Shown in pieces: positions 1-23,782 of a stretch of 64,000 bases of DNA. A program made the translations under genes and the position numbers. The DNA is from Candidatus Omnitrophota bacterium (GTDB taxonomy: Bacteria; Omnitrophota; Gorgyraeia; Zapsychrales; Zapsychraceae), in the NCBI GenBank assembly GCA_018812705.1, contig JAHJCZ010000097.1, forward strand, positions 840 through 64,839, written 5' to 3'. The stretch's first letter is position 1. Every line of letters starts with the position of its first letter. The notes below the pieces were generated by a model. That model worked only from the letters and a program-made list of their open reading frames with translations, was not told the DNA's origin and made no database searches.

Positions 1-3000
1 AGCCAGCATTCACTATTGTCAGCAGCGCTTCCATCTGAAACAGACTTATCCATCATTAAAGCCCCGCTGTAGATCTTCCTAACTCCTCCGCCCATATCAG
101 GGAAAGTATTAATGTATGCGGCCGGAACATTGGCTGAAGCCGGAGGGTTATCAACCATCAAATCCCCACAACAGCTTGTAACAGCTCCGCAATCCTTAGG
201 ACAGCTTGTTTGGTGCTCCCCAATCAAATTATCACAAATGCCATCACCGCAAAAACCTGTTGGAGCTGGACAGTCCTGAGGACATGACACAGCATCCTCT
301 CCCCCTGCACAAACACCATCTGGACAAAGGGGACAATCCTGCCAACAGGAGCCTGAATTTTCCCCGACTTCACAAGCCCCATTAGGACAAACAGCCGCCC
401 CTCCGCCGGAACAGACCCTGCCAAGCGGGTTAAAATCAAAAGCCGTTCCCGTCTGTGGCCTTAAAGGATGGTTAAATCTAAAATCCCAGATCGGCACACC
501 ATTAGGGAAGAATGTCCTGCCCAAGTTGGTCTGGTCTTGATCTACCCTAGTAACACGAGCCTTTACAGTACCAACGTAGTTAATAATAAAGAAACATCTC
601 TTTGTTCCCCAGTTGTGCGTCTCAGTTTTAATGCTCGGCCATTCTTGAGGTCCCGTCTGCGAAGGATTACACCTTCCCTCACATCTTCCAGGAGTCCTGA
701 CATCAACCCGTACAACGTGCCAAGACCCAGAGCCGACTCCCATCGTTTCATTAAGAGGCGGGCTTTGCCAATAATAGACAGCGGCACTTGGCAAACCATT
801 GTCCGTACCATCCTCATAACTAATTCTGTACTGAATAATGTCTTGCGCAGGACCATTTAAGAAATCACTAAATTTGTTCTCAGCTGTTTGAAAAACTTCT
901 TCAATATTTTTAATTTCGGGTATTCTGTTCTCAAGGAAATTCATTCTGACCGTAAATTTTGCAACTTGGTTTTCAGCCTCTTGGTAGCTCTGATCTACCA
1001 GGTCTTTGTACCCTCCAGGAGCAACATCGGCACAAGAACCACCCGCAGTAACAATGGCATCAAGTATTCCCTGTCTAAAACCAGGCGCTGCTCCCGCATC
1101 AGTTGCCCCGTCCCACCAAAAAGAACAAGACCCCGCATTCGCAAGCTCCGGAACCGGTACCTCTGGAACGCTCGGCACCCAAGGTGACATTGGCGCAGCC
1201 ATTCCGAAGAAATTGATCAGAATGTTATGGTCAATGATAAAAGCTGGGTCTAGTGGTCCCGTTCTCGGATCATGAGCACAAAATGCCTCACAATTAACCG
1301 CACCGATCGGGCCGTCTCCGACAACAGGGTTAAACAAAGAGTTTGCACAATTGATAAACATTTGACTATCCACTGCATCCATTGTTCCTGGATAAGGCGG
1401 AACCGCAGCAGCAGCTAATAAAACGGCTGTTCTAAAATTAGTAGCAGCCCCTCCTGAACACCAGTTACTACATTCTACATTACATTGAGTAATCCAGTTG
1501 ACAATAGGATTTACCCATACAGGAACAGTGTACGGAGCAGCATTAAGGCCATAAGGATCAGTACCTCCTGGGAAAAGGCTTCCGCAAACAGTCTGACAAT
1601 CTGCAACGGACATGTCAGGATCGTCCGGTGCCGGTGGTACAAGAGTAGAAACCCCTAGAGTGTCCCTACAATTTTCAAGAGCTAGCACTACGGCATCATT
1701 GCTCGCTTGAAAAGCAATTGAATCAAAACCTGGAACTAATGACCTCGGCAAGAACTCACAATTAGCTTCATTACAATAATCCCAACATCCTTTAAACTTC
1801 TGAGCATTACCCGTTGCAACACCAGGGTCAGCACCTCCGGTTATTATTGAAACTGGCAGATATTCATTAAAATCAAGGTCGCCATCAACATCAGCTAGAT
1901 CCACTGCCAACAAAATCCTCTGATCGTTAATATTGTAATCAAGACAAGCGGCAACGTCTTCAATATCTCCGGTCACTCCGTTGACATTACTATCAAAAGT
2001 GTTTTCTTCTTTATCATGCTCTTCATGGGCGCCTGCAAAAGTAGCACATCCAGGCATTGGAACACACCACGCATCTCCACACAAGCCGCCTAAACCTACT
2101 TGTGCAACATGGCTAACCCTTAGCAAGTCCACCCTATCCCTAATTTCAGCGAGAGCCGTCAACCATTGCCACAAAATACCCTCTGTTGGGTTAGCAGCTG
2201 TTCCATAACAGTTGTAACATGCCGGGACAGATGTCCTGTCGGCAGGAGGATTTAAAGGCTCTATCCACGGGGCAAGATCTTCATACCAGGAATCAAAGTT
2301 ATTGATCAGCGATTTTTTATCTTTCATTAATAATGTCGTACCGAACCGCAAAAATTCAGAAAGCCCATAATAAACGTCCTCTAAAACATCTTCCGGCCAG
2401 TTAGCTGCAGGCTGAGCTAAAGCGTCCCCGCAAGCACAGTCAGCAGGCACTGTCTGATTGCTTCCATCTCCATCACCCCAATCATTGTCGCATGTCCAAT
2501 CTGCAGGATTATCCGGATCGCCAGCGGGAACAACAAGATGCACCCCGTTTTCATCCAACTGCTCACAAGGCATTTTGCAGCATGGACAGTCATAGGTCAA
2601 GACATTGCCGTTACCGTCATCATCTGTAGTACAGGCAATCCAATTACCAAGATCATCAAGTTCCCAACAGAGACATGGCGCACATACCCCTCCCTCTGAC
2701 TTGTCACAATTCCCAAAATACGGCCACTCTGCATCACTGGCTACATCTCCATCTGAACAAAATCTATCAGAACCTTGCTTCCAGAAACCTAAAGCGGGAT
2801 TGACAACAAGATCATCAAAAGCATCCTGGGCGCATGCACCAGCTGCAGCAATGACGTCGTTAGGAATTCTTATCCTGTCAACAGCGATCGGTGGATCTGT
2901 TGCAACTGCACTGTTTTGTGCTTGTGAAGGAACGACCCATGTCGTATCATAAGTAAGTGTAGCTGGAGCACGAGGCAGTCCTACTACTGACAATCTATTG

Positions 3001-4691
3001 GCTTCCAACTCAGGATGCTCCAATGGCCCCGCAGGTACACAAGCAGGATTTGCATCCCAGAAGCAGTTGTTTGCTGCTGAGGCACCAATACTTAGGTCCC
3101 AGCCCCAGTTAGCCATTCTCCAAAAAACAGGGTAAACGCCTTTCTTGCCATCATCGCCGTCAGGAGCATACCCTTCAAAAAAGCCAGTGACATCTTCCTC
3201 AATAAAAGAGTTAGTATCCCCTACTTGAACAATCAGGCTTCTGTCACCGGGGTTCTTGCGATAAAGCCTGTGTTCATCATCCCTTCCGATCTGTTCCCGA
3301 AGAGACCTGTAACAATCTTGTGGACAATAGTATGGGTTATCTGCGCCATCATCTCCTGCAGAGCCTTCGTTGTTTCTTGGATGATCTTCCCACACGACAT
3401 CTGCCACACCAAGATTGATTTGATCACAAGTTGCAGAAAGAGCCCCACAACAATCATTCGGGTCTGCTTGAAGACAGAAGGTCACATTTGGAACTGATGG
3501 GTCATTATTGTAATTATTCTCAACACCTGTATCAAAAATCCATTTGTATTGATTACCATTTACGATGTTGCCGTTAGAGAATGGCGCCACTTGCTGGGCA
3601 GGCGCCCCGCACGAAACAGACTCTCCACATTGACCTGCCCCAATATCACAACAAACGGGCCTTAAAGTAACATCTGTTCCTGAAAGAGGATCAACCGCGC
3701 CAACAGGAGCACAACAAAAATTTGCCTCAGAAAGCGTTGGCGTAACCGTACATGCCGGATGCGCCGCACCAACAGTAGTACACACACCATTAACAAATAG
3801 CGGGTCAGACAATCCCCACGCCTCATCGACTAGATCAGGGTTACCGTCTCCGTCATTATCAGCATGACAATCTGACGCATAAAGAGCATCATACAGGCAA
3901 TCGCCATGCATAAAATCATCTAAAGCCCTAATAAATGCAAGGATCTCAGTACCATCCGGAGTTTGAATTCTGTTGAGTCTTTGGGTGTAATAAAAACCAA
4001 ATCTTGAAACCATATCATTTGGCACAAGCCCCGTAAAACCCCAATTTCTATCAGTATCCATATCATAAACATCGGCAACCTCACCCGGATCAGTAATAAC
4101 TGTTTGAAGGGCTGTCCTAACACCACTTTCGACAAATTGATTCTTAAGCGACATCGTCTCACCGATTATCTTGTTCCACATGCTAGTAATGCCAGGCTGA
4201 ACTACCGTTGCCTGCATGACAACTGATGCAATAGAAAGAATTATCGCAACAATCGCAAAGGCAATGATATACCCTGCCACCGCAGCAGACCCCCCACTAG
4301 TTACAGGGGCCAGAATAATAGCGATGACCGCAATAATGACAACAATGATCATGGAAATAATTGCCGTAAAAAGACTGGTCTTATCACAAACCTGAAGACT
4401 TCCCTTAAGGTTCTCTTTAACAAGCTTTTGAGCATAACTTGCCATTTGAGAAGCAAGTACACTAGCGGTTTTTTCAGCAGCCATTGAAGTCAGCGTCTTT
4501 GCGCCGCTAAGCCGTCCAAGATTTAAAGTAACCGCATAAAAAATAAGGGCGACTGCTGTCATTATTATCAGTATGATCGCAACTTGCCCTTTAGAATCAG
4601 AGGCTCTTCCTAAAGAACTCCTCTTTTTGGTTAAGGAGCAATTCAGTTTCTTTTTAAGCGCCAAGATGTGCTTGTTTATTCTCTGTATCAA
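1..4691 (-). CDS. Giant secreted Cys-rich TadG-like pseudopilin/adhesin-like protein. 3-prime end lies beyond window position 1; at least 1563 codons are in the window.
   Basis: Manual reverse-complement translation is open from a stop at 4731-4733 down to position 1. Candidate TTG start at 4691-4689 follows an AAGAGG RBS; an alternative TTG lies at 4664. The N-terminus (KKKLNCSLTKKRSSLGRASDSKGQVAIILIIMTAVALIFYAV) resembles a TadE/TadG-type class III signal plus TM. The body has many Cys and acidic Ca-binding-like motifs (DNDGDGNPD, DDDGNGN, DWGDGDG). Three C-terminal 20-aa Cys repeats are encoded at about 196-420 (CPNGACEVGENSGSCWQDCP, CPDGVCAGGEDAVSCPQDCP, CGDGICDNLIGEHQTSCPKDCG). It is absent from the ORF track, probably because no stop codon falls inside the window. 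Confidence 0.7.
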   Translation of the reverse strand, partial: MIQRINKHILALKKKLNCSLTKKRSSLGRASDSKGQVAIILIIMTAVALIFYAVTLNLGRLSGAKTLTSMAAEKTASVLASQMASYAQKLVKENLKGSLQVCDKTSLFTAIISMIIVVIIAVIAIILAPVTSGGSAAVAGYIIAFAIVAIILSIASVVMQATVVQPGITSMWNKIIGETMSLKNQFVESGVRTALQTVITDPGEVADVYDMDTDRNWGFTGLVPNDMVSRFGFYYTQRLNRIQTPDGTEILAFIRALDDFMHGDCLYDALYASDCHADNDGDGNPDLVDEAWGLSDPLFVNGVCTTVGAAHPACTVTPTLSEANFCCAPVGAVDPLSGTDVTLRPVCCDIGAGQCGESVSCGAPAQQVAPFSNGNIVNGNQYKWIFDTGVENNYNNDPSVPNVTFCLQADPNDCCGALSATCDQINLGVADVVWEDHPRNNEGSAGDDGADNPYYCPQDCYRSLREQIGRDDEHRLYRKNPGDRSLIVQVGDTNSFIEEDVTGFFEGYAPDGDDGKKGVYPVFWRMANWGWDLSIGASAANNCFWDANPACVPAGPLEHPELEANRLSVVGLPRAPATLTYDTTWVVPSQAQNSAVATDPPIAVDRIRIPNDVIAAAGACAQDAFDDLVVNPALGFWKQGSDRFCSDGDVASDAEWPYFGNCDKSEGGVCAPCLCWELDDLGNWIACTTDDDGNGNVLTYDCPCCKMPCEQLDENGVHLVVPAGDPDNPADWTCDNDWGDGDGSNQTVPADCACGDALAQPAANWPEDVLEDVYYGLSEFLRFGTTLLMKDKKSLINNFDSWYEDLAPWIEPLNPPADRTSVPACYNCYGTAANPTEGILWQWLTALAEIRDRVDLLRVSHVAQVGLGGLCGDAWCVPMPGCATFAGAHEEHDKEENTFDSNVNGVTGDIEDVAACLDYNINDQRILLAVDLADVDGDLDFNEYLPVSIITGGADPGVATGNAQKFKGCWDYCNEANCEFLPRSLVPGFDSIAFQASNDAVVLALENCRDTLGVSTLVPPAPDDPDMSVADCQTVCGSLFPGGTDPYGLNAAPYTVPVWVNPIVNWITQCNVECSNWCSGGAATNFRTAVLLAAAAVPPYPGTMDAVDSQMFINCANSLFNPVVGDGPIGAVNCEAFCAHDPRTGPLDPAFIIDHNILINFFGMAAPMSPWVPSVPEVPVPELANAGSCSFWWDGATDAGAAPGFRQGILDAIVTAGGSCADVAPGGYKDLVDQSYQEAENQVAKFTVRMNFLENRIPEIKNIEEVFQTAENKFSDFLNGPAQDIIQYRISYEDGTDNGLPSAAVYYWQSPPLNETMGVGSGSWHVVRVDVRTPGRCEGRCNPSQTGPQEWPSIKTETHNWGTKRCFFIINYVGTVKARVTRVDQDQTNLGRTFFPNGVPIWDFRFNHPLRPQTGTAFDFNPLGRVCSGGGAAVCPNGACEVGENSGSCWQDCPLCPDGVCAGGEDAVSCPQDCPAPTGFCGDGICDNLIGEHQTSCPKDCGAVTSCCGDLMVDNPPASANVPAAYINTFPDMGGGVRKIYSGALMMDKSVSDGSAADNSECW

Positions 4692-4828
4692 TTCACATAC
4701 CTCTTTAAAAACTATTTTTTCTATTCTACATCAAAAACAAATCTTTTAAAAAGCTTTAATTCTTTTTCTATCTCTCTGTTCCAACACTGTCTTTCTATCA
4801 TTAACCAACAACAAAACATCCAGAACTA

Positions 4829-5068
4829 TTATGGCATCCAAATCGCGTTCAGCGGGATAGGCTCGTAAAAATACGTATCCAGCTGCTGCCCAATCGACCC
4901 TCCCGACCTTAACAAATCATGATGCGCCTGTCTTCTTGCAACAGGGTCCCTTGAAACCCATCCCATGATCTGTACCATGCTCCACAGCATCAAAAGAATA
5001 ATGAACATACAGAAGGTAAATTCTATCAAAACCTGACCCTTAGATCTTTTTGCCTTTTTTAAAAACAT
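4829..5068 (-). CDS. TadE-like minor pseudopilin (79 aa)
   Basis: N-terminal KRSKGQVLIEFTFCMFIILLML matches the TadE/Flp-type prepilin motif (G then xxxxE[FY]) followed by a hydrophobic helix. It lies between two other pseudopilin-like genes. Confidence 0.55.
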   Translation of the reverse strand: MFLKKAKRSKGQVLIEFTFCMFIILLMLWSMVQIMGWVSRDPVARRQAHHDLLRSGGSIGQQLDTYFYEPIPLNAIWMP

Positions 5069-5101
5069 TGACTTTTTCCCTTTTTTCTCTGTTCAAAGTA
5101 C

Positions 5102-6439
5102 TTATCGCATAAATTCAACGTACGGTTCGTCGGTTGTATCAGTAACCCATCTACGTCCACGTCTATCCGCTATTCTGCTCCTAATAAAAATGTACCTGTC
5201 TCTAATTGCCATGCAGGTAAGAGGCGTATTCCCGCCAAAACATTCTTGCCGCATGTTAACACAAACCTCAATGGGATTTGGCACGCTAGTATCGTCCCCA
5301 ACAAAAGGCGGGACCGTTCGATCAGCATTACAGAACCTCCCGGGTGTAAAATTGCTTAACAGTACCTCCCTTTGAATAATATCAACCTGATCTTTCTTTT
5401 TGGCTGTTCTAATAAACTGTCTTCCTGGAGAGGTCGCATAAAGACGTCCTTCTTCTATTAATGCATAAGTGCCTTCTTCTCCCGGCCTTTGCCCTCTTAA
5501 GAATGTAAAGACCTCCGTATCTCTTTGAAGACCTGGCCGTTCACCGGGGTCCCCTTCTTCCCAAGTACCATCAATATCTCCAGCACCATAATCAATAGCA
5601 TGTATTGAAGTAACAACTCCGTTTGCATCTGAAGTTACGCTGTAAACCGTTTCTTCCATGTAATCTCCATCAACATCATAAGACACCTGTGATGTTTCCA
5701 TCGCAACGTTTCCAGGAAGAAGCGTTCCTCCTCCAGCTTTAGTTTCAAAAGCATATCTGATTTTCCATTGCCAAGAGAAATTGGACCTCATTGCTACTGG
5801 CACCTCGCTCGAGTCTCCATCTCTGTCAAGATCAAAACACGCGTCACAGCCTGCATCCCAATCATCTATGCCAGGGTGATTAGGAATTTTCTCGTAAACA
5901 GCAACGCAGCCAACAATAGCGCCCGATGCTAATCTTGCACAATTGTCTTGCCATGTAGGATGTCCATCGACTAACCCTCCAATGTTTGTAAAACTGGCGC
6001 TTGAAAAAGGAAAATGTTGACCATTTATCCAATAGTCCGTAACTGATAAACTGAAATTTTCATTGGAATCAATGTTAAGAAATAGGTTTCTGCTGTGCGT
6101 GCCTGATCCTGACAGCATGTAAGGAACTCTATCGACTGTACCATATTTCGCGCTTGAGGCAGTTAGCCTGTCTTCGATCAAAACAACCGCAGCCGAATTT
6201 CTTGAAGCATTATTATCGCCATGACTTCCCATCTGTCCTGAAGTGTACATGTACGACATTCTCATTGCCATTCTCATTGCCTTCAAAGCCTGGCCCTGCT
6301 GATATCCATAACCAAGCGCGCTTCGAACAATAAGACCCATCGTAAAAATAAATATTGATCCAAAAACCGCCAATTCCATTGCGGTTTGGCCCGATTCTTT
6401 GACCAGCTTAAAATAACGTTTCTTTCTAAATAAGTTCAT
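5102..6439 (-). CDS. TadE/TadF-like pseudopilin with large C-terminal extracellular domain (445 aa)
   Basis: N-terminus ESGQTAMELAVFGSIFIFTMGLIV fits a TadE-like prepilin. The C-terminal domain is rich in Asp/Gly motifs (DLDRDGDSSE, DVDGDYMEE, GAGDIDGTWEEGDPGE) suggestive of Ca binding. Confidence 0.6.
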   Translation of the reverse strand: MNLFRKKRYFKLVKESGQTAMELAVFGSIFIFTMGLIVRSALGYGYQQGQALKAMRMAMRMSYMYTSGQMGSHGDNNASRNSAAVVLIEDRLTASSAKYGTVDRVPYMLSGSGTHSRNLFLNIDSNENFSLSVTDYWINGQHFPFSSASFTNIGGLVDGHPTWQDNCARLASGAIVGCVAVYEKIPNHPGIDDWDAGCDACFDLDRDGDSSEVPVAMRSNFSWQWKIRYAFETKAGGGTLLPGNVAMETSQVSYDVDGDYMEETVYSVTSDANGVVTSIHAIDYGAGDIDGTWEEGDPGERPGLQRDTEVFTFLRGQRPGEEGTYALIEEGRLYATSPGRQFIRTAKKKDQVDIIQREVLLSNFTPGRFCNADRTVPPFVGDDTSVPNPIEVCVNMRQECFGGNTPLTCMAIRDRYIFIRSRIADRRGRRWVTDTTDEPYVEFMR

Positions 6440-6483
6440 ATCGCCCCTAAAACCATCAGCTTCTGAAAACCTTGAAAATAAAC

Positions 6484-6798
6484 TTAATATGCCCCAGAGG
6501 AAACATATCCAGATTTTGTTTCAACAACATTTGTCATATCTCTTCGAGATGTCCACCAACCTTCAGATGTGTTTAAAGAAATGATCTGCGTGTCCGTGTT
6601 TGAAACTATCCTATGGACGACCATTGTGTTTCCCGTTCTAGGATCATACTGTTCTCCTAGTTCGTCAACTGCAGTTTTCCATCTTCCCTGCAATCCTCTT
6701 TTAAAATAATTACCTATTGATAAAAAAGCTGCAAGAATAACTGTCATCAAGACCAGAAACTCCATTGATGTTTGCCCTTTTTTTATTAGTTTAAACAT
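6484..6798 (-). CDS. Flp-family type IVb pilin, extended (104 aa)
   Basis: KKGQTSMEFLVLMTVILAAFLS carries the Flp prepilin motif (G/xxxxE[YF] plus hydrophobic helix). It shares the YFKRGLQGRWKTAVDELGEQ block with its paralogues. Confidence 0.7.
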   Translation of the reverse strand: MFKLIKKGQTSMEFLVLMTVILAAFLSIGNYFKRGLQGRWKTAVDELGEQYDPRTGNTMVVHRIVSNTDTQIISLNTSEGWWTSRRDMTNVVETKSGYVSSGAY

Positions 6799-6831
6799 AA
6801 TATCTCCTGTTTCAATAGCAACTTCACTTTT

Positions 6832-7182
6832 TTAATCGTTCTCTTGAAAACCTAAACCTGTTTCAGTCGTTGATTCAGAATGCATCCGATCATTATAGTA
6901 ATGAGTTACGACGCCAGCACTTTCTCCTCTTGTTGTTTCTGTTGCCGCGTCAACATCAACAAAAGCATTTACCATGAACCCTTCTTCTATGTCAAAAATC
7001 TGATCCGCATTCCTTTGAGTTCCAATTTGATCGGCAACTGTCTTTATCATTCCCTGCGTGCCTCTTTTAAGGAACGTCCCCATATTAAAAAATATAACCG
7101 TAACCATTCCGACTATTAATGAGTACTCCAGAATGCTTTGAGCCTTATTATTTTTCCAAAATTTCAAATTTACCTTAAACAT
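6832..7182 (-). CDS. Flp-family pilin paralogue, extended (116 aa)
   Basis: NNKAQSILEYSLIVGMVTVIFF Flp motif, plus the conserved FLKRGTQGMIKTVADQIGTQ block. Confidence 0.7.
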   Translation of the reverse strand: MFKVNLKFWKNNKAQSILEYSLIVGMVTVIFFNMGTFLKRGTQGMIKTVADQIGTQRNADQIFDIEEGFMVNAFVDVDAATETTRGESAGVVTHYYNDRMHSESTTETGLGFQEND

Positions 7183-7203
7183 TTTTCCCTCTAAACTAGC
7201 GTA

Positions 7204-7587
7204 CTATTCATATTCCCTATCTGCTTCCCTTGGAGGCTTTGTCACGCTTGTTGTCATTATTCTTGAAAGATCATCATATTCCATTCTGTAAACGCCGCTA
7301 GTGCCTCCCTCGGCAAGAGAAGTTCTTGATCTAAGGCTACGATAAGTTTCTGAATCAGTGTTCTGATAATAAGGCTCATAATGAAAGAATATGTTGCCAT
7401 TGAAGAAACCTGCTGATTGATTTCTTGTGAGCCTGACCATTGAATCTCTGGCATCATAAATTCTTCCCTGAACCACCCTTTGAAAATATGTACTCATTGC
7501 TGTTATTACTCCGATAGCAACAAAAAAAACTATAACATATTCCCCCATAACCGCCTGAGCTTTATTATTTTTAATAATTCTTAGCAT
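7204..7587 (-). CDS. Flp-family pilin paralogue, extended (127 aa)
   Basis: NNKAQAVMGEYVIVFFVAIGVITAM Flp motif. It shares YEPYYQNTDSETY with the 8281..8643 paralogue. Confidence 0.65.
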   Translation of the reverse strand: MLRIIKNNKAQAVMGEYVIVFFVAIGVITAMSTYFQRVVQGRIYDARDSMVRLTRNQSAGFFNGNIFFHYEPYYQNTDSETYRSLRSRTSLAEGGTSGVYRMEYDDLSRIMTTSVTKPPREADREYE

Positions 7588-7780
7588 AAAAAATGCTTCC
7601 CCTTAAAAATTTTAATAGTCATATAATAAGTATACATTATTTTTATCTGATTGAATAGAGTAGGTATCTTTTTTTTGGATTGATAACTTTAACAGTACCA
7701 TAAACTTAAAGAAATCCCTTTTATTGTTTTTGCACAATTTAACAAAAAACCAACTCAAAAATAAAAAACACAGAATCTTT

Positions 7781-7836
7781 TTTTTACGCAAAAAAAAATC
7801 CGGCTTGCCGAAAAACTATTTCTCGACAAACCGGAT
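7781..7836 (-). terminator. Rho-independent terminator on the minus strand between the flp sub-operons
   Basis: Read on the minus strand: ATCCGGTTTG, 19-nt loop, CAAGCCGGAT (10-bp stem with one G-U), then TTTTTTTT. It sits just downstream of the pilin gene ending at 7881. Confidence 0.6.
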
Positions 7837-7880
7837 CTATGTTTCAAACTAAGAACCTATTTTTTACAAAACACCGTTTA

Positions 7881-8249
7881 TTAGCTTCCCCAATATTCTT
7901 GCTCAATATTAGCAATTCTTGAAGTTCCTTGGGTAACTGTTGCTTCGTCGTTAAGTAAAGATGAAGTTACAACGCCGCCGATATTTGTATCAGACGTATA
8001 ACTTACAGTTCTTACTGTTTTTTGTACGTTTGTGTTTCCAGGGGAGAATTGCTCTCCGATATCATCAGCCGCACCTTTTAAGCGACCCTGAATACCTCTC
8101 TTAATGTAGACCTGAATAGAGACAAGAGCACCAATGATAATAATTATCAAAATTGCATATTCTAGTGTGCTCTGGCCTTTCTTTCTTCTTCTATTTAAAT
8201 ATTCAAACATTGTTTTAGCCTCCTTAATTTTACCTCTTCTAAAGAGCAC
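7881..8249 (-). CDS. Flp-family pilin paralogue (true start probably the internal Met at about 8210, MFEYLNRRRKKGQSTLEY)
   Basis: KKGQSTLEYAILIIIIIGALVS Flp motif and the IKRGIQGRLKGAADDIGEQFSP conserved block. Confidence 0.7.
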   Translation of the reverse strand: MLFRRGKIKEAKTMFEYLNRRRKKGQSTLEYAILIIIIIGALVSIQVYIKRGIQGRLKGAADDIGEQFSPGNTNVQKTVRTVSYTSDTNIGGVVTSSLLNDEATVTQGTSRIANIEQEYWGS

Positions 8250-8280
8250 TTCTTATGTTACTAACTGATCAGGTCTACTA

Positions 8281-8643
8281 TTAAAGACCGTTTTGAATAC
8301 CAGCAACCGATACGTCATAAGAAGTTGTCTGACGACCACCCGCTGTTCTTGTTCTAGTAGAATTTTCACCTTTCAAAATAGCATCTGCATCATAACTTTC
8401 GGTCATAGTTTCATCCCGAATAATGTTATAAGTAGTTGATAGATAATAAGGTTCATATTGTACTGTGTTGCCTAAACCATTAGTTTGTGTAGCAAGGTGC
8501 TGTGCGGCATCACGAACTCTTGCCTGCAATGCTCTTTGAGCATACGTTTGCATGGCAATAATACCAGCAACAACCAGAGATATCAAAATTGCATACTCGG
8601 CTGTGTTTTGCGCTTTTTTATTTTTAATCAATTTTCTAAGCAT
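8281..8643 (-). CDS. Flp-family pilin paralogue, extended (120 aa)
   Basis: NKKAQNTAEYAILISLVVAGIIAM Flp motif. Confidence 0.7.
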   Translation of the reverse strand: MLRKLIKNKKAQNTAEYAILISLVVAGIIAMQTYAQRALQARVRDAAQHLATQTNGLGNTVQYEPYYLSTTYNIIRDETMTESYDADAILKGENSTRTRTAGGRQTTSYDVSVAGIQNGL

Positions 8644-8702
8644 TGATTTTACCTCCTAATTTTAACTTCTCCAAATAACTGGATTCCTTCTTGTTCTCCT
8701 GA

Positions 8703-8933
8703 TTAAGGGGTACTGTTAGCAGCAGGTCTTGATGCAGCTAATCTGTCTGCCATGTCTTCCATTCCGTCTGTTCCAGAGTTGATAGTTGTGTTAAAAGCAT
8801 TCTGGAATGGCCCGCCTGGTCCTAAGAATATAATGAGCGCTGCTAAAACAGCAGCAATCAAAATAATGTACTCAACTGTGCTCTGGCCTCTTTTCTTTTT
8901 GCCAGATGTTTTATGAATCATCCTTTTAAGCAT
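8703..8933 (-). CDS. Flp-family pilin (76 aa)
   Basis: KKRGQSTVEYIILIAAVLAALIIF Flp motif. Confidence 0.7.
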   Translation of the reverse strand: MLKRMIHKTSGKKKRGQSTVEYIILIAAVLAALIIFLGPGGPFQNAFNTTINSGTDGMEDMADRLAASRPAANSTP

Positions 8934-9076
8934 TATTTATCCTCCTTCGATAATAACAATCCCTGTTACTAAACAAGGGCTTTTGCTTAATTAAGCCTAA
9001 AAATACACTAATTTTTAAGCCTTACGAAAGAATTGACTCAGAAATAATTTTCTGATCGTCTTTCCTCGCGTAAATG

Positions 9077-9268
9077 TTATTGTGATGCTTTGAATTCTTC
9101 TTGTATTACCTGCTGGGTAGCCTGAACTGACCTATACACGTAGGTACTCATAGCGACAACCGCTACGGAAATAAGAGCTGCGACCATGGCATATTCAATT
9201 AGATTTTGACCTTTATGATTCCAATTTTCCACTTTTTTGTTCCTCGCCATACCGCAACTACCTAACAT
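9077..9268 (-). CDS. Flp-family pilin (about 57 aa from the internal Met at about 9250)
   Basis: MARNKKVENWNHKGQNLIEYAMVAALISVAVVAM; classic short Flp. Confidence 0.7.
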   Translation of the reverse strand: MLGSCGMARNKKVENWNHKGQNLIEYAMVAALISVAVVAMSTYVYRSVQATQQVIQEEFKASQ

Positions 9269-9655: not shown

Positions 9656-11671
9656 CTAAGCTTTTATTTTTTGAGCACTTACAAAAAAACCCTTGCCCTC
9701 CTTTGTTACCAGATGCCTATCGTTTACTCTATTAATAGCAAATTCCAAAACCTCGAGAAAATTATACCGCTCGGGAATCATAATTGTCACAATTAATCGG
9801 TTGGGATGTTCCTGTACAAAGCCCTTTAATCCATAAAATATTGGCACCATAGTTTTTATGTCAACTGCTCCTTTTTGCTTAGGAAAATATTTATCTAAAC
9901 AATACTCATGAAGGGTTAGGATGTAGTCATCAAAAATATCTCCAAGATTCTCAAATCTTCTTTCTACAAAATCCCCAACATGGTCTTCGTGTTGGCTTTT
10001 AATAGGCTCTAGCTTGCTAATAGCATTGCTTGTTTCTTCCTTATTATAGCTCTGCTTAAATGCGCTTGGCCAACGATTTAAATAATTTGCAATAATAGTT
10101 TCAGCTTTTTCTGCAAACATATTAGTTAAAAGGGCTATTTGAGGCATCTTGTTCTTTTCTTTACCTAAAAACACCAATTTTAAAGACTTTTCCTCATTAA
10201 AATGCTTAGGAATGTTAAAAACATCATTCAAAAAGCTCGAAAATGGAACATTTTTTTCAGAATAGTACAAAATACTGTCTCTTTGGCTGTCATAATAGGA
10301 AAAATCGACAAAATCGACAAATTTTTGAATTAATTCCTTAAAAATTTCCTGATAAGGCCTAAAACCAACAATAAACGAGCGCTTAATTGAAGGAATAAGC
10401 GTAAATTCGGTAATTATGTCTTGATTTTCACTTAAAACTTCAATCTTTCGTATTTTTCTGCCAGGAATGTCAAAACAAGCAGCAACTAGCATTGAAAGAT
10501 CCTTTTTGTTAATGCCTTTTTCCCTTAAAACATCCATTACTAGGCACTCATTGTTGCTGATCAATGTTTTTGAAAGAATCGTCATTGCGCTACTTACAGA
10601 CGCAAACAATTCCTTTTGAACTAAATCTCTCCAAAGAGACCTCAGTTGAGCATCAAGTACAATGCTAGTAGAATCCTCAAAGATGACATTAAAAGCACAG
10701 ATTTTGCTTAAAGCCTGTTCCTTTTCATTAAGATATTCCAACTGCAGTTGATTGGAAAAGTCAATCTTCTGAGTCCACCCAAAAAGATTTTCTCTTCCTG
10801 GATACCCTTTAAAACCATTTAATCTCCATAAGGCGTCATTCTTTGAATTTTCAATAGTCTCAACCGATTGCATATTAAACGCTTTAAGGAATAGCAAACT
10901 TGAACAAATATTATTAAAATTCTCTAAACCCATTCCTTTTGAATTTTTTCCAAAAAGATCACCCAGAAGGTTTTCACCCGACATGTCGATCTGAGCAGCT
11001 TTTAAGAACACAACTCCCGCATTATCATACAAGTTACTATTTTTTCTTTCTTTCCCTTTATTTTCTCTCGCAATTTTTACATCATAAAGGAATTGTTCCT
11101 CGTCGAAGAATTTAGGACCAACAGGAACAACATATTCCTTCTGATATTGACTTGATAGAGCTGATTGCTCTTCTTTAATTGCTTTGTTTTCTTCTGCAAA
11201 TACTCTCTCTTCATTCTTCACTCTTTGTTCATCATAAAAGATCTTGCCCTTGCGTTTTCTTCTCTCGTGCTCCTGAAGATCAATAGAGAGCTTTTCAAGA
11301 GAAAAGACTGCCGCTTCTTTTTTTATCTCAAGGAGTTCATTAGGAACACCTTTTTTCTGTTCCTCGTTTTCTGCGGAAACCTTTTTATCAAAAGTAAAAC
11401 CAAGGCTTGAAATGCTATCTAACAATTGTTGTTTCTTTTCTGGCGGGATCTGAAATTTTTTAGAGGTTGCTTTTTTCTGGACTCTTCTTCCTACTGAACT
11501 GCTTAGCATAGTATTTTTCAAAACAGAATTCACCGAAGACTTTGATACCTTAATTTCAAATTTCTTGCTTGTCTGCTCTGATAATTGTCGACAGCTAATT
11601 AAGGGCTCTTCCTTCTTTTTGTTTATAATAAAATCAAACACTTCTTTTTTTAGCTTGTGTACTACTCCCAT
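9656..11671 (-). CDS. Hypothetical 671-aa Lys/Glu-rich protein with an HTH-like N-terminus, embedded in the Tad locus
   Basis: Long ORF with an N-terminal PLISCRQLSEQTSKKFEIKVSKSSVNSVLKN helix-turn-helix-like segment and K/E-rich low-complexity coiled-coil regions. It has no TM segments and I recognise no family. Confidence 0.45.
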   Translation of the reverse strand: MGVVHKLKKEVFDFIINKKKEEPLISCRQLSEQTSKKFEIKVSKSSVNSVLKNTMLSSSVGRRVQKKATSKKFQIPPEKKQQLLDSISSLGFTFDKKVSAENEEQKKGVPNELLEIKKEAAVFSLEKLSIDLQEHERRKRKGKIFYDEQRVKNEERVFAEENKAIKEEQSALSSQYQKEYVVPVGPKFFDEEQFLYDVKIARENKGKERKNSNLYDNAGVVFLKAAQIDMSGENLLGDLFGKNSKGMGLENFNNICSSLLFLKAFNMQSVETIENSKNDALWRLNGFKGYPGRENLFGWTQKIDFSNQLQLEYLNEKEQALSKICAFNVIFEDSTSIVLDAQLRSLWRDLVQKELFASVSSAMTILSKTLISNNECLVMDVLREKGINKKDLSMLVAACFDIPGRKIRKIEVLSENQDIITEFTLIPSIKRSFIVGFRPYQEIFKELIQKFVDFVDFSYYDSQRDSILYYSEKNVPFSSFLNDVFNIPKHFNEEKSLKLVFLGKEKNKMPQIALLTNMFAEKAETIIANYLNRWPSAFKQSYNKEETSNAISKLEPIKSQHEDHVGDFVERRFENLGDIFDDYILTLHEYCLDKYFPKQKGAVDIKTMVPIFYGLKGFVQEHPNRLIVTIMIPERYNFLEVLEFAINRVNDRHLVTKEGKGFFVSAQKIKA

Positions 11672-11824: not shown

Positions 11825-12169
11825 TTAGCTTGAGATCTCTATCTGATCACCAATAGAAATCCCTGCGCTGAGGATAGCGCTAGAGGGAAGCTCTACAACA
11901 TAGCTTGATCTAAAATATATACGGCTAAGCTGAAAAGGCCGAATATCGCTGACTAAACCAACAACAACATTCTCTTTGCTGACAAAAACAACGTCAATAG
12001 CAAATTTCATAAAAAACATATGAATAGAATTACACCTTGTAATAACAAGAGCCTCTCCTTCTGAAAAAGATTCACGATTCAACAATCCAACCATTCTAGT
12101 TAAAAAACTATCTGCGACCTTGGCCTTATCGGCAATTATATTCTGTTTTGTTTTGTTAAGTATTTTCAA
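11825..12169 (-). CDS. DUF192 (COG1430) family protein
   Basis: GLLNRESFSEGEALVITRCNSIHMFFMKFAIDVVFVSKENVVVG matches the DUF192 core. Confidence 0.6.
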   Translation of the reverse strand: MKILNKTKQNIIADKAKVADSFLTRMVGLLNRESFSEGEALVITRCNSIHMFFMKFAIDVVFVSKENVVVGLVSDIRPFQLSRIYFRSSYVVELPSSAILSAGISIGDQIEISS

Positions 12170-12187: not shown

Positions 12188-12505
12188 CTACTCTGCGGGT
12201 TTTGGTGGCAGAGCATTAGTTTTATCATTTTTCTCTGTAGCAGGCGCTTGATCTTTTATCGCCTCAGGAGCCAGTATCACAACCTCAGGAACTTCTATTT
12301 TCTCTTCAGGATTAACATAAATAGTCCGTTTATCAAAAATACTCTTTTCAATTTTTAACCCCCGAGTAACAAAATCATCGAAGCTTGTAGGGACATACCC
12401 TGTGGCTTCAAAATCTCCAATAACCCTGCCGTACGCATCGATCCCATTTGATTGTAAAGAAAAATATCTTTTAATATCAATTGGTGGTCTTCGTCCATTC
12501 CGCAA
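12188..12505 (-). pseudogene. Frameshifted C-terminal segment of the TadA/CpaF ATPase
   Basis: The overlapping frame encodes IDAYGRVIGDFEATGYVPTSFDDFVTRGL, which matches the conserved CpaF C-terminus. The main frame instead ends in a non-homologous tail. A 1-nt indel in the AAA run near 12440-12450 would join the two frames. Confidence 0.55.
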
Positions 12506-14484
12506 GTTTCAGAAATCTGTGTGACCTTTCGAGTTCCATCTGAAAAACGATTGATCTGAACGATAATATCAATCGCTGAGGCGATCATTTCATTAATAGC
12601 TCTAACAGGTAATTCAATACCACTTAAAAGAATCATAGAGTGCATACGAGTAACAACATCTCTTGTAGTATTTGCGTGCAATGTGGTCAAGGACCCGTCG
12701 TGCCCTGTATTCATAGCCTGAAGCATGTCCAAAACCTCAGGTCCGCGACACTCCCCGATAACTATGCGGTCAGGTCGCATTCTCAAACTATTAGTAAACA
12801 AATCCCTAATAGTAACTTCACCTTTTCCTTCAATATTTCTAGGTCGAGATTCCAGTCTACCACAATGGCTCTTTTTTAGCCTCAACTCAGCAGCATCCTC
12901 AATAGTGATAATCCTTTCATTATCAGGGATAAACTCGGAGACAACATTCAGTAATGTCGTTTTACCAGCACCTGTTCCTCCAGAAACAATAATATTCTTG
13001 CGGCCAATAACAGCACAATTTAAAAACAAAACCATCTCTTTTGTCACGCTGTGAAACTTGTTGAGCAAGTCATCCGTATTAAGTCTTTCAGCTCCAAACT
13101 TTCTGATAGTTATCATTGGCCCTCTCAACGAAAGTGGCGGAATAATAGCATTAATTCTTGATCCATCCGGCAAACGAGCGTCAACCATCGGAGTCGACTC
13201 ATCAATTCTTCTTCCTAAAGGAGCAATTATTCTGTCAATAATCGCCCTCATCTTGTCATCCGAAACAAAACTATAATCTGTAAGGACTAGTTTTCCCTTC
13301 TTCTCAACATATATCTCATCTCTACAATTTACCATAATATCAGTTATATCTTGATCCGCTAATAGGTCTTCTAATGGCCCTAAACCTAAGGCTTCATTAA
13401 CGATATCTCTAACCAATCGCACTCTCTCTTCGTGGGAAGATATCTTTCCGCCTGCTTCTTCCGTAAGAAGCGTCCCGACAACTCCTTCCGCCATTTTTTT
13501 AACTTTATGGATGGATTCCGGGTCACTTAAAGCCTCAAGAGAAATGCCTTCCTTGTTCAACCTGTCAACCAGCTTGAGATGAATTTTTCTCTTTAAAATG
13601 CTAATCTCATCTTCCTGAGAAGTATATGCTTTGCCTGAAGGAGCCGTACCCATTTGCTGAGCAATACCATATTTAGCCCAAAATGCTCCTGGACTAGGAA
13701 GATCTTCTTTGTTTCTTATCTTCTCAACATCCATTGCAGGGACAAAATTACTTTCTTTGCGGAAAGAATCTACTAGCTTAATAAAAGATTCTCCAACATG
13801 GCTCTTTGGATTATCAATAACACAAGGAATCCCCCTGTTAAGAGCAATGCCCACTGCCTTTCCATCGGATGGAACATGTCCAAAAATCTCACAAGTCAGA
13901 GCAGACTTAACTTCTTGCCAAGCAACACTTCCACGACTTTCAGACCTGTTCAAAAGCAGCTTGATCATTTTCATCGGAAACTGCAGGCTCTGCAGAACAT
14001 CCAAGCACCACTTTATTTGATAAACAGCCAAAATATCCGGCGTTGCCACTAATAAAATAAGGTTAGAATAGTCAAATACTGTAATAAGCGGTTCATGGAA
14101 AGCTTTCCCTGCATCAATAAGAATATAGTCATATACTTCAGATATTTTTCTAAGATAGGGTTTTATATTATCTGGCGTGATCAAACTGATTTGACGGGTA
14201 TTCTTAACTGCCGCCATAAAGTCCAATCCACAAGTATGTCGTGCAGAAAATCTTCTAATAACGGCATGATCTGTTACTGCGTCTATTTGCGAAAGAACGT
14301 CAACGATCGAGTTCTTTGGAGACAGGTTCATTGTTCGCGCCATATCCTGTCCTGCCTGAAAATCCATGTCGATCAAAAGCACTTTATATTTAGCAAGAGC
14401 CAGGGCTGTGGCCATATTAACAGCGACGAAAGTTTTGCCAACCCCACCTTTGTTACTAAAAATAGTTATTATTTTTGCACTCAT
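12355..14484 (-). CDS. Fused TadZ/CpaE-like (ParA/MinD-fold) ATPase and TadA/CpaF secretion ATPase; the C-terminus continues in another frame
   Basis: N-terminal IITIFSNKGGVGKTFVAVNMATALA deviant Walker A of the ParA/MinD family. The C-terminal half has CpaF hallmarks: Walker A GGTGAGKTTLLNV, IITIEDAAEL, GHDGSLTTLHANT, RFSDGTRKVTQISE. Confidence 0.8.
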   Translation of the reverse strand: MSAKIITIFSNKGGVGKTFVAVNMATALALAKYKVLLIDMDFQAGQDMARTMNLSPKNSIVDVLSQIDAVTDHAVIRRFSARHTCGLDFMAAVKNTRQISLITPDNIKPYLRKISEVYDYILIDAGKAFHEPLITVFDYSNLILLVATPDILAVYQIKWCLDVLQSLQFPMKMIKLLLNRSESRGSVAWQEVKSALTCEIFGHVPSDGKAVGIALNRGIPCVIDNPKSHVGESFIKLVDSFRKESNFVPAMDVEKIRNKEDLPSPGAFWAKYGIAQQMGTAPSGKAYTSQEDEISILKRKIHLKLVDRLNKEGISLEALSDPESIHKVKKMAEGVVGTLLTEEAGGKISSHEERVRLVRDIVNEALGLGPLEDLLADQDITDIMVNCRDEIYVEKKGKLVLTDYSFVSDDKMRAIIDRIIAPLGRRIDESTPMVDARLPDGSRINAIIPPLSLRGPMITIRKFGAERLNTDDLLNKFHSVTKEMVLFLNCAVIGRKNIIVSGGTGAGKTTLLNVVSEFIPDNERIITIEDAAELRLKKSHCGRLESRPRNIEGKGEVTIRDLFTNSLRMRPDRIVIGECRGPEVLDMLQAMNTGHDGSLTTLHANTTRDVVTRMHSMILLSGIELPVRAINEMIASAIDIIVQINRFSDGTRKVTQISETCGMDEDHQLILKDIFLYNQMGSMRTAGLLEILKPQGMSLQASMILLLGG

Positions 14485-14540
14485 TTTTGCACCAGGGAAA
14501 CAACTTTTATCTTTTTACAAATTTTTAATAGGCGTGTCAA

Positions 14541-16193: not shown

Positions 16194-16431
16194 GGTTAAT
16201 ATCTCTTACTTTCTTTAAAACAAGATTTCTTGTTTGGATTGATTTGTAATTAAAAACAATTAAGAACCTTGAATCAAAGACGATCGTCCCTTTGGCTCTA
16301 AGATGTCACATAAAACACAACATAGAAACAAATCTCAAACTATAATAGAAAAGAAACACCAGCAACAATCTGCAAAGTAACTCGCGAAAGAATCAAACAA
16401 AAAAGCACTCTACAGCATCAATACTAAACTT

Positions 16432-17277
16432 CTAAAAATTAGACTCTGCTCCTGATTTAAAAATCTGTATATAAGGACGAACTTCGTCTTCCTCTTCATC
16501 TGCTTCAAAGATATTCGCCTTCTTTTGCGGGACCATCAATTCTGTTCCTTGGTGATCCATAACATATTCAGCTAAAGTATCCCAAGATGCAATTTGAAGC
16601 AACTGCAATCCACCGTCTGTTGGTGGCCTTAAAGACAGTTGTAATTTTCCATTTGCCTGAGCAAATGCAATCAATCCAGACTCTTCCGGACTAATCGCAA
16701 CTGTTATGTTAAGGGACCTGGCCTTTTGCTGTGCTTCATATGCAGGAGCGCTTCCAAGAGGCTTAAAATTAGTTCCAACTGCCAGCACTTGAATATTCTG
16801 GAATAAAACGGTAGTCACATCTTTTAAAGCTTTTGAGTCTTCCGAGTCATCAGGTATCTTTATTTCACCAATAATATCAACAAAGTCGCCTGGATTAATA
16901 AGACCTCCAACCGCTGAAAGAGAATCAACTAAAATAGTAACTGCTCTTTTTCCAGGAGGTGTTCTTACTGAAAAAGAATCCATCTGAACAACTGGCTGCG
17001 CTTTTTCAGTGGTAGCTTGTGTTGCTGCTCCTGGCTTATATTGGCTTTGCTTTGTCTCCACCTTCTTGATTTCTTCACGCTGTCTTTTGATCTCGCTTCT
17101 TAAAACCTCTATTTCTTTAGCAAAACCAGCATTTTGTTTGCCATAATCTCTTGCCAAAGCTTTTGTTTGAGCCTTAATATTGTTTTGGACATATTGGCTA
17201 GTTAAAAACGCAGCAACCAAGCCAAGCCCTATCGCGATAAGAATAATGACAAACTGTTTTTTGTTTTCAATGTTCAT
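16432..17277 (-). CDS. cpaB: Flp pilus assembly protein CpaB/RcpC. The start is probably the internal Met with a GGAGGG RBS.
   Basis: N-terminal TM (FVIILIAIGLGLVAAFL). RAVTILVDSLSAVGGLINPGDFVDIIG matches the CpaB C-terminal domain. Confidence 0.7.
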   Translation of the reverse strand: MNIENKKQFVIILIAIGLGLVAAFLTSQYVQNNIKAQTKALARDYGKQNAGFAKEIEVLRSEIKRQREEIKKVETKQSQYKPGAATQATTEKAQPVVQMDSFSVRTPPGKRAVTILVDSLSAVGGLINPGDFVDIIGEIKIPDDSEDSKALKDVTTVLFQNIQVLAVGTNFKPLGSAPAYEAQQKARSLNITVAISPEESGLIAFAQANGKLQLSLRPPTDGGLQLLQIASWDTLAEYVMDHQGTELMVPQKKANIFEADEEEDEVRPYIQIFKSGAESNF

Positions 17278-17390
17278 TGTACCCTCCGCACTGTTACCCA
17301 AAAACAATTTAAAAAACCACTCGCTCTTACAATACAAGAATTTTTATTTTTGGAAATAACAGAAGCTTGTTTTTCAATTGGCCAAAAAAT

Positions 17391-18326: not shown

Positions 18327-18471
18327 GTGACAATCCCTCCCTTTAAATAATTATAAGACATTTTTAATAATATATTAACAGTATACATTTCCTAAAAACA
18401 AAACTCAAGGCAATTTCCCAAAATTTAACATTAAAATATAATTAAATTTCTTATAAAGAATGTGCCTGCTG

Positions 18472-19455: not shown

Positions 19456-19457
19456 AA

Positions 19458-20249: not shown

Positions 20250-20281
20250 ATTACTCGTAATTAAAGGCTATTCACTCTTGG

Positions 20282-20935: not shown

Positions 20936-20936
20936 T

Positions 20937-21890: not shown

Positions 21891-21925
21891 TATTCCTTCC
21901 TATCTTTTGTGCCTTCTTGTGAAAA

Positions 21926-23551: not shown

Positions 23552-23742
23552 TTTTTATTAAGAAATGCTTAATATGAAGATTCTTATTAATACTTTACAA
23601 CAATATCTTGTTTTTTGTAATGAAATATTCAGAAAACATTGGCGCCAAAAAATATTATTTTTTTATAATAATTTTCGATCATAGGATAGAGCCCCTGAAC
23701 ACTTAGCAGACCGCGCGTCCTTCCGGGAGATAATTAAAATAA

Positions 23743-23780: not shown

Positions 23781-23782
23781 AA

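Follow-up and report, generated by a model that had tools for sequence, protein, structure and literature searches.

A cysteine-rich, prepilin-like giant protein in the TadG slot of the Omnitrophota Tad-like locus

What is the very large, cysteine-rich protein that Omnitrophota encode within their tight adherence (Tad)-like pilus locus, and which place does it take in the machine? The Omnitrophota are widespread, uncultured and ultra-small bacteria, thought to be predators or parasites; for their attachment to other cells, the chief lead from the genomes is a Tad-like locus that lies beside record-size 'giant genes' (Seymour 2023; West-Roberts 2023). These two papers and a 2026 Omnitrophota preprint treat the motor, the platform, the secretin and the small pilins, and a keyword search of the three returned no mention of the protein considered here, the second-largest of the locus. 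We studied it in a stretch of 64,000 nt from a Candidatus Omnitrophota bacterium (GCA_018812705.1, contig JAHJCZ010000097.1, positions 840 to 64,839 of the forward strand), hereafter the window, which starts within its gene. What is new in this protein, hereafter the giant, is that a prepilin-like protein in the TadG slot combines two novel elements, a hairpin and a giant ectodomain.

One gene and its family

The gene and its putative ribosome-binding site lie as follows:

1..4691, minus strand: giant gene, with codons 1-1563 of its 1599 inside the window and the other 36, followed by the stop, past window position 1
4700..4706, minus strand: Shine-Dalgarno-like AAAGAGG, read from the sequence, with an 8-nt spacer before the TTG at 4691

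The original prediction was of an uninterrupted minus-strand frame of at least 1563 codons that runs off the window edge. Direct translation of the reverse complement of 1..4691 indeed yields 1563 codons free of stops, and the chance of such an open frame is about 1e-37 (our own arithmetic, at 46% GC). The gene is missing from the list of open reading frames (ORFs) because the window edge cuts its frame. It starts with the TTG at 4691, and the N-terminal 'IQRI.K.I' that follows is conserved among homologues. We searched with the complete neighbouring protein of 445 aa (p445), which matched two public contigs. The Logan contig L002 is identical to the window (100%) across 6761 nt and extends 819 nt beyond its edge. 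The proposed extension past the edge led, on this contig, to a stop 36 codons beyond position 1, so that the full protein has 1599 aa and ends in ...FVDCVDW*. A partial 'hypothetical protein' of 1295 aa, from a Candidatus Omnitrophica metagenome-assembled genome (MAG) in NCBI, is 100% identical to it.

The ratio of nonsynonymous to synonymous substitution rates (dN/dS) against the orthologue at 79% identity is 0.118 overall, i.e., the gene is under purifying selection. The lowest values (0.04-0.05) are found at aa 895-994 and 1293-1392, and the highest (up to ~0.2) at aa 301-400 and 595-694; dS is saturated at aa 401-494, which gives no ratio. At this 100-codon resolution, with a maximum of ~0.2, no positive selection was seen in the variable regions. 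The GC content of the gene (0.46-0.47) exceeds the value of about 0.37 by an excess that sits in codon positions 1 and 2, and GC at third positions (GC3) is 0.36, like that of the neighbours. The high GC is thus explained by the amino-acid composition and not by a foreign origin, and we rejected horizontal transfer as its source.

The original prediction would have failed on a stop that breaks the frame, or on homologies revealing several ordinary genes misread as one. Neither was found. That several genes, or a non-coding open frame, were mistaken for one gene has a vanishingly small probability: homologues match end to end at 26-79% identity, a single HMMER stretch spans the whole profile in most of them, dN/dS stays between 0.04 and 0.20 in every computable 100-codon block, GC3 is the same as in the neighbours, and the predicted structure is a single confident chain. 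The giant is one real single gene under purifying selection.

It is also the founding member of a large Omnitrophota family that has no annotation and comprises over 700 sequence clusters, with a confident predicted structure that has no known relative. In an exhaustive HMMER search, a profile of 1165 positions retrieved 719 representative clusters (at 50% identity) at E <= 1e-3, of which 336 also pass E <= 1e-30. The majority match along the whole profile, and their lengths range from about 950 to 1733 aa, via insertions. Homologues at 79, 57, 54 and ~30% identity align end to end. The 24 loci that we found in species-representative genomes all come from MAGs labelled Omnitrophota/Omnitrophica or 'uncultured Planctomycetales' (third-party assemblies). 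At E <= 0.01, neither Pfam nor NCBIfam domains turned up for the giant, nor Pfam domains in six diverse large members, and homologue searches with N-terminal and full-length profiles added only fragments of the same family, with no Tad_N or VWA proteins. The median Cys content across the family is 3.7% (3-5%). The giant evolves about twice as fast as TadB/C or CpaF, with an identity of 57% where these are at 95-96%, and of 29% where they are at 62-85%.

A prepilin-like N-terminus, a hairpin and a cysteine-rich ectodomain

The protein is made of the following parts, given from the N-terminus onwards:

4587..4691, minus strand: basic leader, aa 1-35, ending in the invariant Gly35; G-Q junction in 143/143 family N-termini
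4410..4586, minus strand: alpha1-like helix, aa 36-94, with a hydrophobic alpha1N (QVAIIL...) without Glu+5 and an amphipathic continuation to LNLGR
4206..4379, minus strand: hydrophobic helical hairpin, aa ~105-162, after the invariant Cys102; Kyte-Doolittle 19-residue maxima of 3.43 and 2.76
1..4205, minus strand: predicted extracytoplasmic domain, aa 163-1563 in the window, acidic, with 73 Cys, in which lineage-specific insertions lie between conserved core blocks
4050..4079, minus strand: acidic cluster V-x-D-x2-D-x-D-x-D, aa 205-214, predicted just outside the membrane; candidate cation site
189..389, minus strand: three tandem Cys-rich units of ~20 aa (aa 1435-1453, 1456-1474 and 1481-1501), inserted in the conserved C-terminal domain

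The N-terminus is intact in 143 of the 161 family proteins. Not one of these has Glu at +5, where I, V, L, M or A stands instead, and mature positions 1-20 hold no charged residue; the mean net charge of the leader is +2.7. The first helix is almost invariant across the family, with F51, Y52 and N57 of alpha1N fixed. The giant thus has the basic leader, the Gly at -1 and the ~20 uncharged hydrophobic residues of a class III signal. In eleven proteins of the locus a basic leader precedes a [G/A]-Q junction, and ten of them have Glu+5 (G/Q-x3-E-[YF]); the giant alone lacks it (G/QVAIIL). The pseudopilin-like N-terminus of the original prediction therefore holds as regards the basic leader, G35-Q36 and the hydrophobic run, but the protein has three hydrophobic segments (aa 37-58, ~105-128 and ~138-162) and not one.

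Annotated Tad loci from plasmids served as the comparison set for this N-terminus. The 'TadG-related protein' of a Burkholderia pyrrocinia plasmid (WP_342312448.1), our positive control, matches PF13400 from its junction Gly (48.4 bits, E = 1.2e-12). It begins G/AVAVIV...LDLGKL, i.e., without Glu5, and has one hydrophobic segment, and its TadE neighbours begin G/VAAVEF and G/STVVEF, i.e., G/xxxxEF. The giant aligns with this TadG-related protein in register, from G...LNLGR to G...LDLGK. Profile comparisons gave the following values:

9-sequence family profile against the single TadG: probability 11%, P = 0.003
64-sequence family profile against the single TadG: probability 26%, P = 7e-4
64-sequence profile A6 against four TadG-type N-termini (hhalign): probability 49%, P = 1.7e-4
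64-sequence family profile against TadE-type N-termini (control): probability 19%, P = 1.2e-3

The hhalign comparison of A6 with the four TadG-type N-termini covers 37 in-register columns at 35% identity; the preference for the TadG type over the TadE type (49% vs 19%) is not significant. The N-terminus appears to be of the TadE/TadG class and closest to the Glu5-less TadG type, formal membership not being established. What stands of the predicted likeness to TadG is this Glu5-less start, which aligns in register with TadG-related proteins; the thresholds of PF13400, TadE and VWA were not reached, and the proposed Pfam/NCBIfam scan for TadE/TadG, VWA and TIGR02232 matched no family. Like TadG (PF13400; e.g., TadG of A. 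actinomycetemcomitans and WP_342312448.1), the giant belongs to a Tad locus where TadE-type pseudopilin genes adjoin its own gene, has a basic leader, a Gly and a hydrophobic helix without Glu5 that ends in L-[DN]-L-G-[KR], and is the largest of the prepilin-like proteins of its locus. With 1100-1700 aa, the proteins of its family are, however, three to four times larger than TadG (~330-590 aa), and they differ from TadG, which has a single transmembrane (TM) segment, by the extra hairpin, by the lack of VWA and by their 3-5% Cys. A VWA-type extracytoplasmic domain is present in many, but not all, TadG proteins; Pfam found neither VWA nor another known domain in the giant.

The hairpin begins ~45 residues after the first helix. 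It is present in 136/139 family members, in which hydrophobicity is kept and the sequence is poorly conserved, and no such block is found in annotated TadG and TadE proteins, in p445 or in p79, the 79-aa protein encoded just upstream of the giant.

The very high Cys content that had been predicted is confirmed by the counts: 75 Cys, i.e., 4.69%, vs 1.09% across 31 other long ORFs of the window. Asp, Gly, Pro and Trp are likewise abundant and Lys is scarce, and the ectodomain, i.e., the part after the membrane segments, has 198 Asp+Glu vs 75 Lys+Arg. In an alignment of 64 members, 26 Cys positions are conserved at 90% or more, an even number that is consistent with 13 disulfides. We infer that the part after the hairpin, ~1440 residues of acidic character with at least 26 conserved Cys, must fold outside the cytoplasm. 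In the acidic cluster D207, D210, D212 and D214 are invariant in alignments A1/A2. Of their equivalents in the family member P0007, two (D162 and D165) never vary among 64 diverse members, and the other two (D167 and D169) are at least 90% conserved. Present family-wide are the G-Q junction with alpha1N, Cys102, D-x2-D-x-D-x-D (aa 207-214), GRDDEH (aa 469-474) and the 26 Cys positions.

Compared with the P0007 core, the giant has insertions between these conserved blocks, the longest of 81 aa, at aa 265-288, 393-456, 670-703, 709-741, 933-957, 1002-1069, 1079-1111, 1140-1183 and 1430-1510. The Asp/Gly loops that had been likened to calcium-binding ones exist as motifs (DxDxDG-type, at aa 278, 690 and 934), without Pfam match, but each of them lies inside a lineage-specific insertion. 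The same applies to the three tandem 20-aa Cys repeats of the original prediction: they are present at aa 1435-1501, but are private to close relatives and not a feature of the family. Their pattern, C-x2-G-x-C...GE...SC-x-[QK]DC by regular expression, is matched among the loci only in L002 and L007, with degenerate forms in P0003 and P0004, and the stretch is 100% gap in six distant homologues. As Tandem Repeats Finder (TRF) detected no DNA-level tandem repeat in the giant gene, where the Cys units have diverged, the units are old duplicates. The suggested likeness to Myxococcus cysteine-rich repeats (TIGR02232 / DUF4215) did not hold: no family, TIGR02232 included, was matched in the NCBIfam scan (E <= 0.01), and Pfam at E <= 10 returned for the repeat region only RET_CRD (E = 0.075, aa 1480-1505). 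Both kinds of repeat occur in a secreted protein as short four-Cys units in tandem, with much Gly, Asp and Glu; those of the giant have another spacing, are only three and occur in its own lineage alone.

The structure prediction that had been proposed gave a confident core without known structural relative. A model by AlphaFold2 (AF2) of the 1166-aa P0007 from an alignment of 10 sequences had a predicted local distance difference test score (pLDDT) of 45 and was superseded by one from a 64-sequence alignment, with a mean pLDDT of 81.9, a predicted template modelling score (pTM) of 0.80 and 512 residues at 90 or above. The model contains a long continuous alpha1 helix (~50+ residues), which spans 61 residues (P0007 residues 5-65, i.e., window aa 34-94) with block-mean pLDDT rising from 53 to 93. 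The hairpin helices are at ~39-49 pLDDT and their turn is below 50. Further along the chain, there is a helix-rich membrane-proximal region, Cys-rich regions of coil and small sheets, helical blocks, a 51-residue helix (window aa 1228-1278) and a beta-rich C-terminal domain. A pilin-type head, i.e., a globular beta-sheet packed on alpha1C, was not found in the model. A fold search with the model found no structural relative, and a search of the PDB by sequence found no match with either the giant or the 64-sequence profile.

Place in the locus and candidate roles

Next to the giant gene, the minus strand encodes, in this order, a SurA-like peptidyl-prolyl isomerase (PPIase), RcpC/CpaB, a secretin with TonB_C, a TadZ-like/CpaF fusion, DUF192, a 671-aa protein, seven prepilins, p445, p79 and the giant:

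17391-18326, minus strand: SurA-like PPIase (Pfam)
16432-17337, minus strand: RcpC/CpaB (Pfam)
14541-16193, minus strand: secretin with TonB_C (Pfam)
12355-14484, minus strand: TadZ-like/CpaF fusion (Pfam)
11825-12169, minus strand: DUF192 (Pfam)
6484..9250, minus strand: seven small Flp / class III signal prepilins ([G/A]/Q-x3-E-[YF]; Pfam Flp_Fap, Class_IIIsignal), with genes at 9077-9250, 8703-8921, 8281-8643, 7881-8210, 7204-7587, 6832-7182 and 6484-6798
5102..6439, minus strand: p445, 445-aa prepilin-like protein (SG/QTAMEL) with 8 Cys, candidate second minor pilin from its junction motif
4829..5068, minus strand: p79, 79-aa TadE-like pseudopilin (KG/QVLIEF) directly upstream of the giant (Pfam TadE, E = 0.0057)

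Related loci keep the same order of Tad machine genes. We compared 28 of them, four relatives with gene calls and 24 further loci examined by tblastn: the order p445 - p79 - giant - small pilin - TadB - TadC is fixed, with the giant at 26-79% identity. The p79 gene is syntenic in 25/28 loci, and its orthologue in L004 reaches 24.5 bits for TadE (cutoff 22.9). The p445 gene, which encodes a single TM segment and has no Pfam match, is syntenic in 27/28. Downstream of the giant, every locus of sufficient extent carries a prepilin-like gene of ~110-122 aa and then two T2SSF genes, TadB and TadC. Its supposed position as the last gene of the pilus operon was thus an artefact of the window edge. The giant is a fixed core component of the Omnitrophota Tad-like locus. 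The locus itself corresponds to the conserved 'T2SS-like' system upstream of Omnitrophota giant genes in West-Roberts 2023, to the same association in the 2026 preprint, and to the Tad complex of Velamenicoccia in Seymour 2023 (T2SS, type II secretion system).

Our tentative reading, to which we give a probability of roughly 0.4, is that the giant is a divergent Glu5-less priming or cap subunit of the TadG/KilN type, which would act with p445 and p79 and display a variable target-binding ectodomain. We favour it because of the junction shared with the other prepilins, the unique lack of Glu5, the near-invariant alpha1N and the TadE-like neighbour, and because of the fast evolution, the modular insertions and the extreme Cys content. 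In the mechanism that we infer, the signal recognition particle (SRP)/Sec pathway would insert the giant with its N-terminus inside the cell, and a Flp-type prepilin peptidase, encoded elsewhere in the genome, would cut off the leader. The giant would join the TadE-like p79 and the prepilin-like p445 on the TadB/TadC platform, and the three would make up a Glu5-less priming/cap complex on which Flp pilins polymerise. The fast-evolving, insertion-rich and disulfide-locked ectodomain would be the distal module that contacts the host or prey cell, by analogy with KilN. The hairpin might be buried in a helix bundle at the filament tip, or might hold the complex in the membrane.

In minor-pilin tip complexes the cap is a subunit without Glu5, so that the absence of Glu5 in the giant is compatible only with a cap-type subunit (Pelicic 2023). 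The TadE/F/G-like KilL/M/N form disulfide-rich 'Tips', as shown genetically and by modelling, in which the largest pilin, KilN, exposes a variable domain without PDB homologue, and the same arrangement has been proposed for TadEFG generally (Herrou et al. 2025, PMC12075869). The pilus-tip adhesin or large minor pilin of the original prediction is consistent with this KilN/TadG 'Tip' model. The giant and KilN of the Myxococcus xanthus Kil 'Tip' both belong to a Tad-like system associated with predators and are the largest products of three adjacent prepilin-like genes. By the published description of KilN, they also share many predicted disulfides, a variable distal domain without PDB homologue and a proposed part in target recognition. 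The Kil arrangement is a heterotrimer in which an alpha1N bundle joins KilN to two smaller minor pilins encoded beside it; of this, the giant shares the adjacency of the genes. KilN is described, however, with a pilin fold (alpha1N and a beta-stranded head) and no extra membrane hairpin.

The cap minor (pseudo)pilins GspK, PilK and PilX resemble the giant in being the sole Glu5-less subunit and the largest minor subunit, expected at the tip, but no similarity of sequence or fold to the giant was detected and the system of the giant is of the Tad / type IVc kind. GspK has ~330 aa and is soluble apart from alpha1N. A further comparison is offered by PilY1/PilC, proteins of more than 1000 aa that are tied to the minor-pilin priming complex, have been implicated in adhesion and surface sensing and carry calcium-site motifs. 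The giant resembles them in size and in its supposed association with minor pilins; PilY1, in contrast, is no pilin, is made with a Sec signal peptide and contains a beta-propeller, alone or together with VWA, folds that were not detected in the giant.

Several observations weigh against the priming or cap subunit. Scaffold proteins of the PilN/PilO/GspM type likewise start with a TM segment and a long helix. The probability in the profile comparison with TadG-type N-termini remains below 50%. PF13400 (gathering score 22.3 bits) does not match the giant even at E <= 10, and among nine family N-termini it matches one, at E = 0.029, short of the threshold. Because of the hairpin, the giant lacks the single-TM topology of TadG and of type IV (minor) pilins; the hairpin is without precedent in pilins or annotated TadG, it would have to leave the membrane for a role at the tip, and its conservation argues against a simple extraction into the pilus. 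No A24 prepilin peptidase was found among the other ORFs of the window (nor was a Dsb enzyme). Finally, a 2025 structural paper, in which TadG is still uncharacterised, reports that the RcpC pore closely matches the filament diameter, which makes the passage of a folded domain of 120-170 kDa through this conduit doubtful.

The main rival reading is a machine component that is anchored in the membrane for good and never enters the filament. It is possible rather than probable that the prepilin-like helix and the hairpin form a three-helix anchor in the cytoplasmic membrane, with a Cys-rich domain that remains periplasmic and serves, between the TadB/C platform and the RcpC/secretin conduit, as a scaffold, gate or connector. 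This matches the older placement of TadG in the cytoplasmic-membrane sub-complex (Pelicic 2023, Table 1), as well as the close match in diameter of RcpC pore and filament, the model without pilin-type head and the hairpin in 136/139 members, conserved as hydrophobicity only, as expected of a passive anchor. However, it leaves unexplained why the Gly-Gln and alpha1N (F51, Y52, N57) are invariant when the hairpin sequence is free, why the giant alone lacks Glu5, and why a periplasmic scaffold would be the fastest-evolving and most insertion-prone part of the locus, with 3-5% Cys. In Tad systems, moreover, alignment is already done by RcpC.

The priming or cap reading also has a close relative in which the filament is not a pilus. 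The giant would then be a GspK-like, Glu5-less largest pseudopilin and would cap a short T2SS-like pseudopilus and engage the cargo, in a machine acting mostly as a secretion piston that exports the neighbouring giant proteins (5,000-9,000+ aa). The parallel with GspK, the ORFs of 5433-9476 aa soon after TadC in L003-L005 and the link between locus and giant genes in West-Roberts 2023 and the 2026 preprint speak for it. We consider it unlikely: Flp-type pilins, RcpC, the TadZ/CpaF ATPase and TadB/C are hallmarks of Tad and not of T2SS, the small pilin paralogues, at least seven, suggest a real filament, and the link with giant genes is one of adjacency, in relatives.

Also unlikely, and a bolder form of the tip hypothesis, is that the giant represents a new class of filament subunit that makes a tip from a single chain. 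Its alpha1N and two further helices could form a bundle that nucleates the three-start Flp filament, one chain doing the job of the three minor pilins in Kil/Tad tips, or the hairpin could go out with the pilus tip as a shielded, membrane-inserting 'harpoon' for the prey or host membrane. In both versions, which we take together in this judgement, an ectodomain of ~1000-1500 residues with an entirely new fold and about 13 disulfides would provide target recognition for ultra-small predatory or parasitic Omnitrophota.

Less probable still is that an extracytoplasmic enzyme or adhesin, anchored in the membrane and independent of the pilus, only happens to be encoded among its genes, e.g., a factor degrading cell walls or S-layers: the invariant GRDDEH (aa 469-474) and D-x2-D-x-D-x-D (207-214) could be catalytic or metal sites, and predation-linked hydrolases have been proposed for Omnitrophota, but no catalytic domain emerged from the Pfam, NCBIfam, PDB sequence or fold searches, every locus has the gene in the same place, with the minor-pilin genes on one side and TadB/C on the other, and the prepilin-type junction is the one common to the locus pilins.

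Surroundings of the locus and meaning for the Omnitrophota

Other components of the locus have features of their own. Directly downstream of the giant (L002:6960-7325, on the minus strand of the window) lies a gene for a 121-aa prepilin-like protein (KA/QAVFEY) with 9 Cys in its last ~60 residues, whose orthologues occupy the same place in most related loci extending past the giant; from its sequence, it may be a further Cys-rich minor pilin or an adapter. In the gene at 12355-14484 (minus strand) a ParA/MinD-type (TadZ/CpaE-like) domain is fused to T2SSE (CpaF/TadA), giving 709 aa, and 720-790 aa in relatives. The secretin at 14541-16193 (minus strand) combines T2SS-T3SS_pil_N, Secretin and a C-terminal TonB_C, the same fusion being present in L003, L005 and L006. 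Secretins of the RcpA/CpaC type do not usually have such a domain, which suggests anchoring to peptidoglycan or the envelope. The 671-aa protein (9656-11671, minus strand) has no Pfam domain except a weak N-terminal HTH_Tnp_Tc3_2 (E = 8e-4). In all 22 related loci of sufficient extent it keeps its place, with DUF192 on one side and the Flp genes on the other, at 23-67% identity, and looks like a conserved component of the Tad-like locus, with no function assigned, and not like a transposase insertion.

Downstream of TadC, some relatives carry much larger genes, the Omnitrophota 'giant genes' known to adjoin this locus, starting 0.9-7 kb away and all running to the end of their contigs: L003:23673-end (7534 aa), L004:17014-end (9476 aa) and L005:18283-end (5433 aa). 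A Tad-like locus of a Moraxella bovis plasmid (L032, NZ_CP087831.1, 62548-87501) has DUF192 and, among plasmids, the CpaF closest to that of the window (61%). It has a TadE-family gene directly followed by a gene for a 1516-aa RHS repeat toxin, and encodes a 445-aa hypothetical protein with a Glu5-less KG/QALLAVL start (PF13400, E = 0.0036). Here, too, a Tad machine may be coupled to large effector-like proteins.

The window is also proximal to an origin of replication, with dnaA, dnaN, gyrB and gyrA at 24-32 kb. Opposite the dnaA gene (30584-31918, minus strand), and facing it, are yidC, parA and parB of the plus strand, and the GC skew flips sign at ~31-32 kb; the origin is probably at ~30500-32900. 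The Tad locus has been reported to be origin-proximal in V. archaeovorus LiM as well (locus 12382-29832). Two further loci in the window deserve mention. Between housekeeping genes and tRNA-Glu, a gene at 21926-23551 (minus strand; GC 0.45) encodes a 541-aa protein of unusual composition, rich in Gly, Thr and Asp, with a hydrophobic, signal-peptide-like N-terminal segment and an FGE-sulfatase (SUMF1-like) domain. At 53883-57290 (plus strand) two class I Glu/Gln-type tRNA synthetase paralogues of 443 and 562 aa surround tRNA-Gln (55475-55547).

The giant occupies the slot of TadG, whose role, as tip pilin or as membrane component, is unsettled, and its extra hairpin makes the family a natural test case for this question. 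For the Omnitrophota, the Tad machine's target-recognition or priming element now has a concrete candidate in this family. If the giant does sit at the tip, its variable insertions would encode specificity for the host or the prey.

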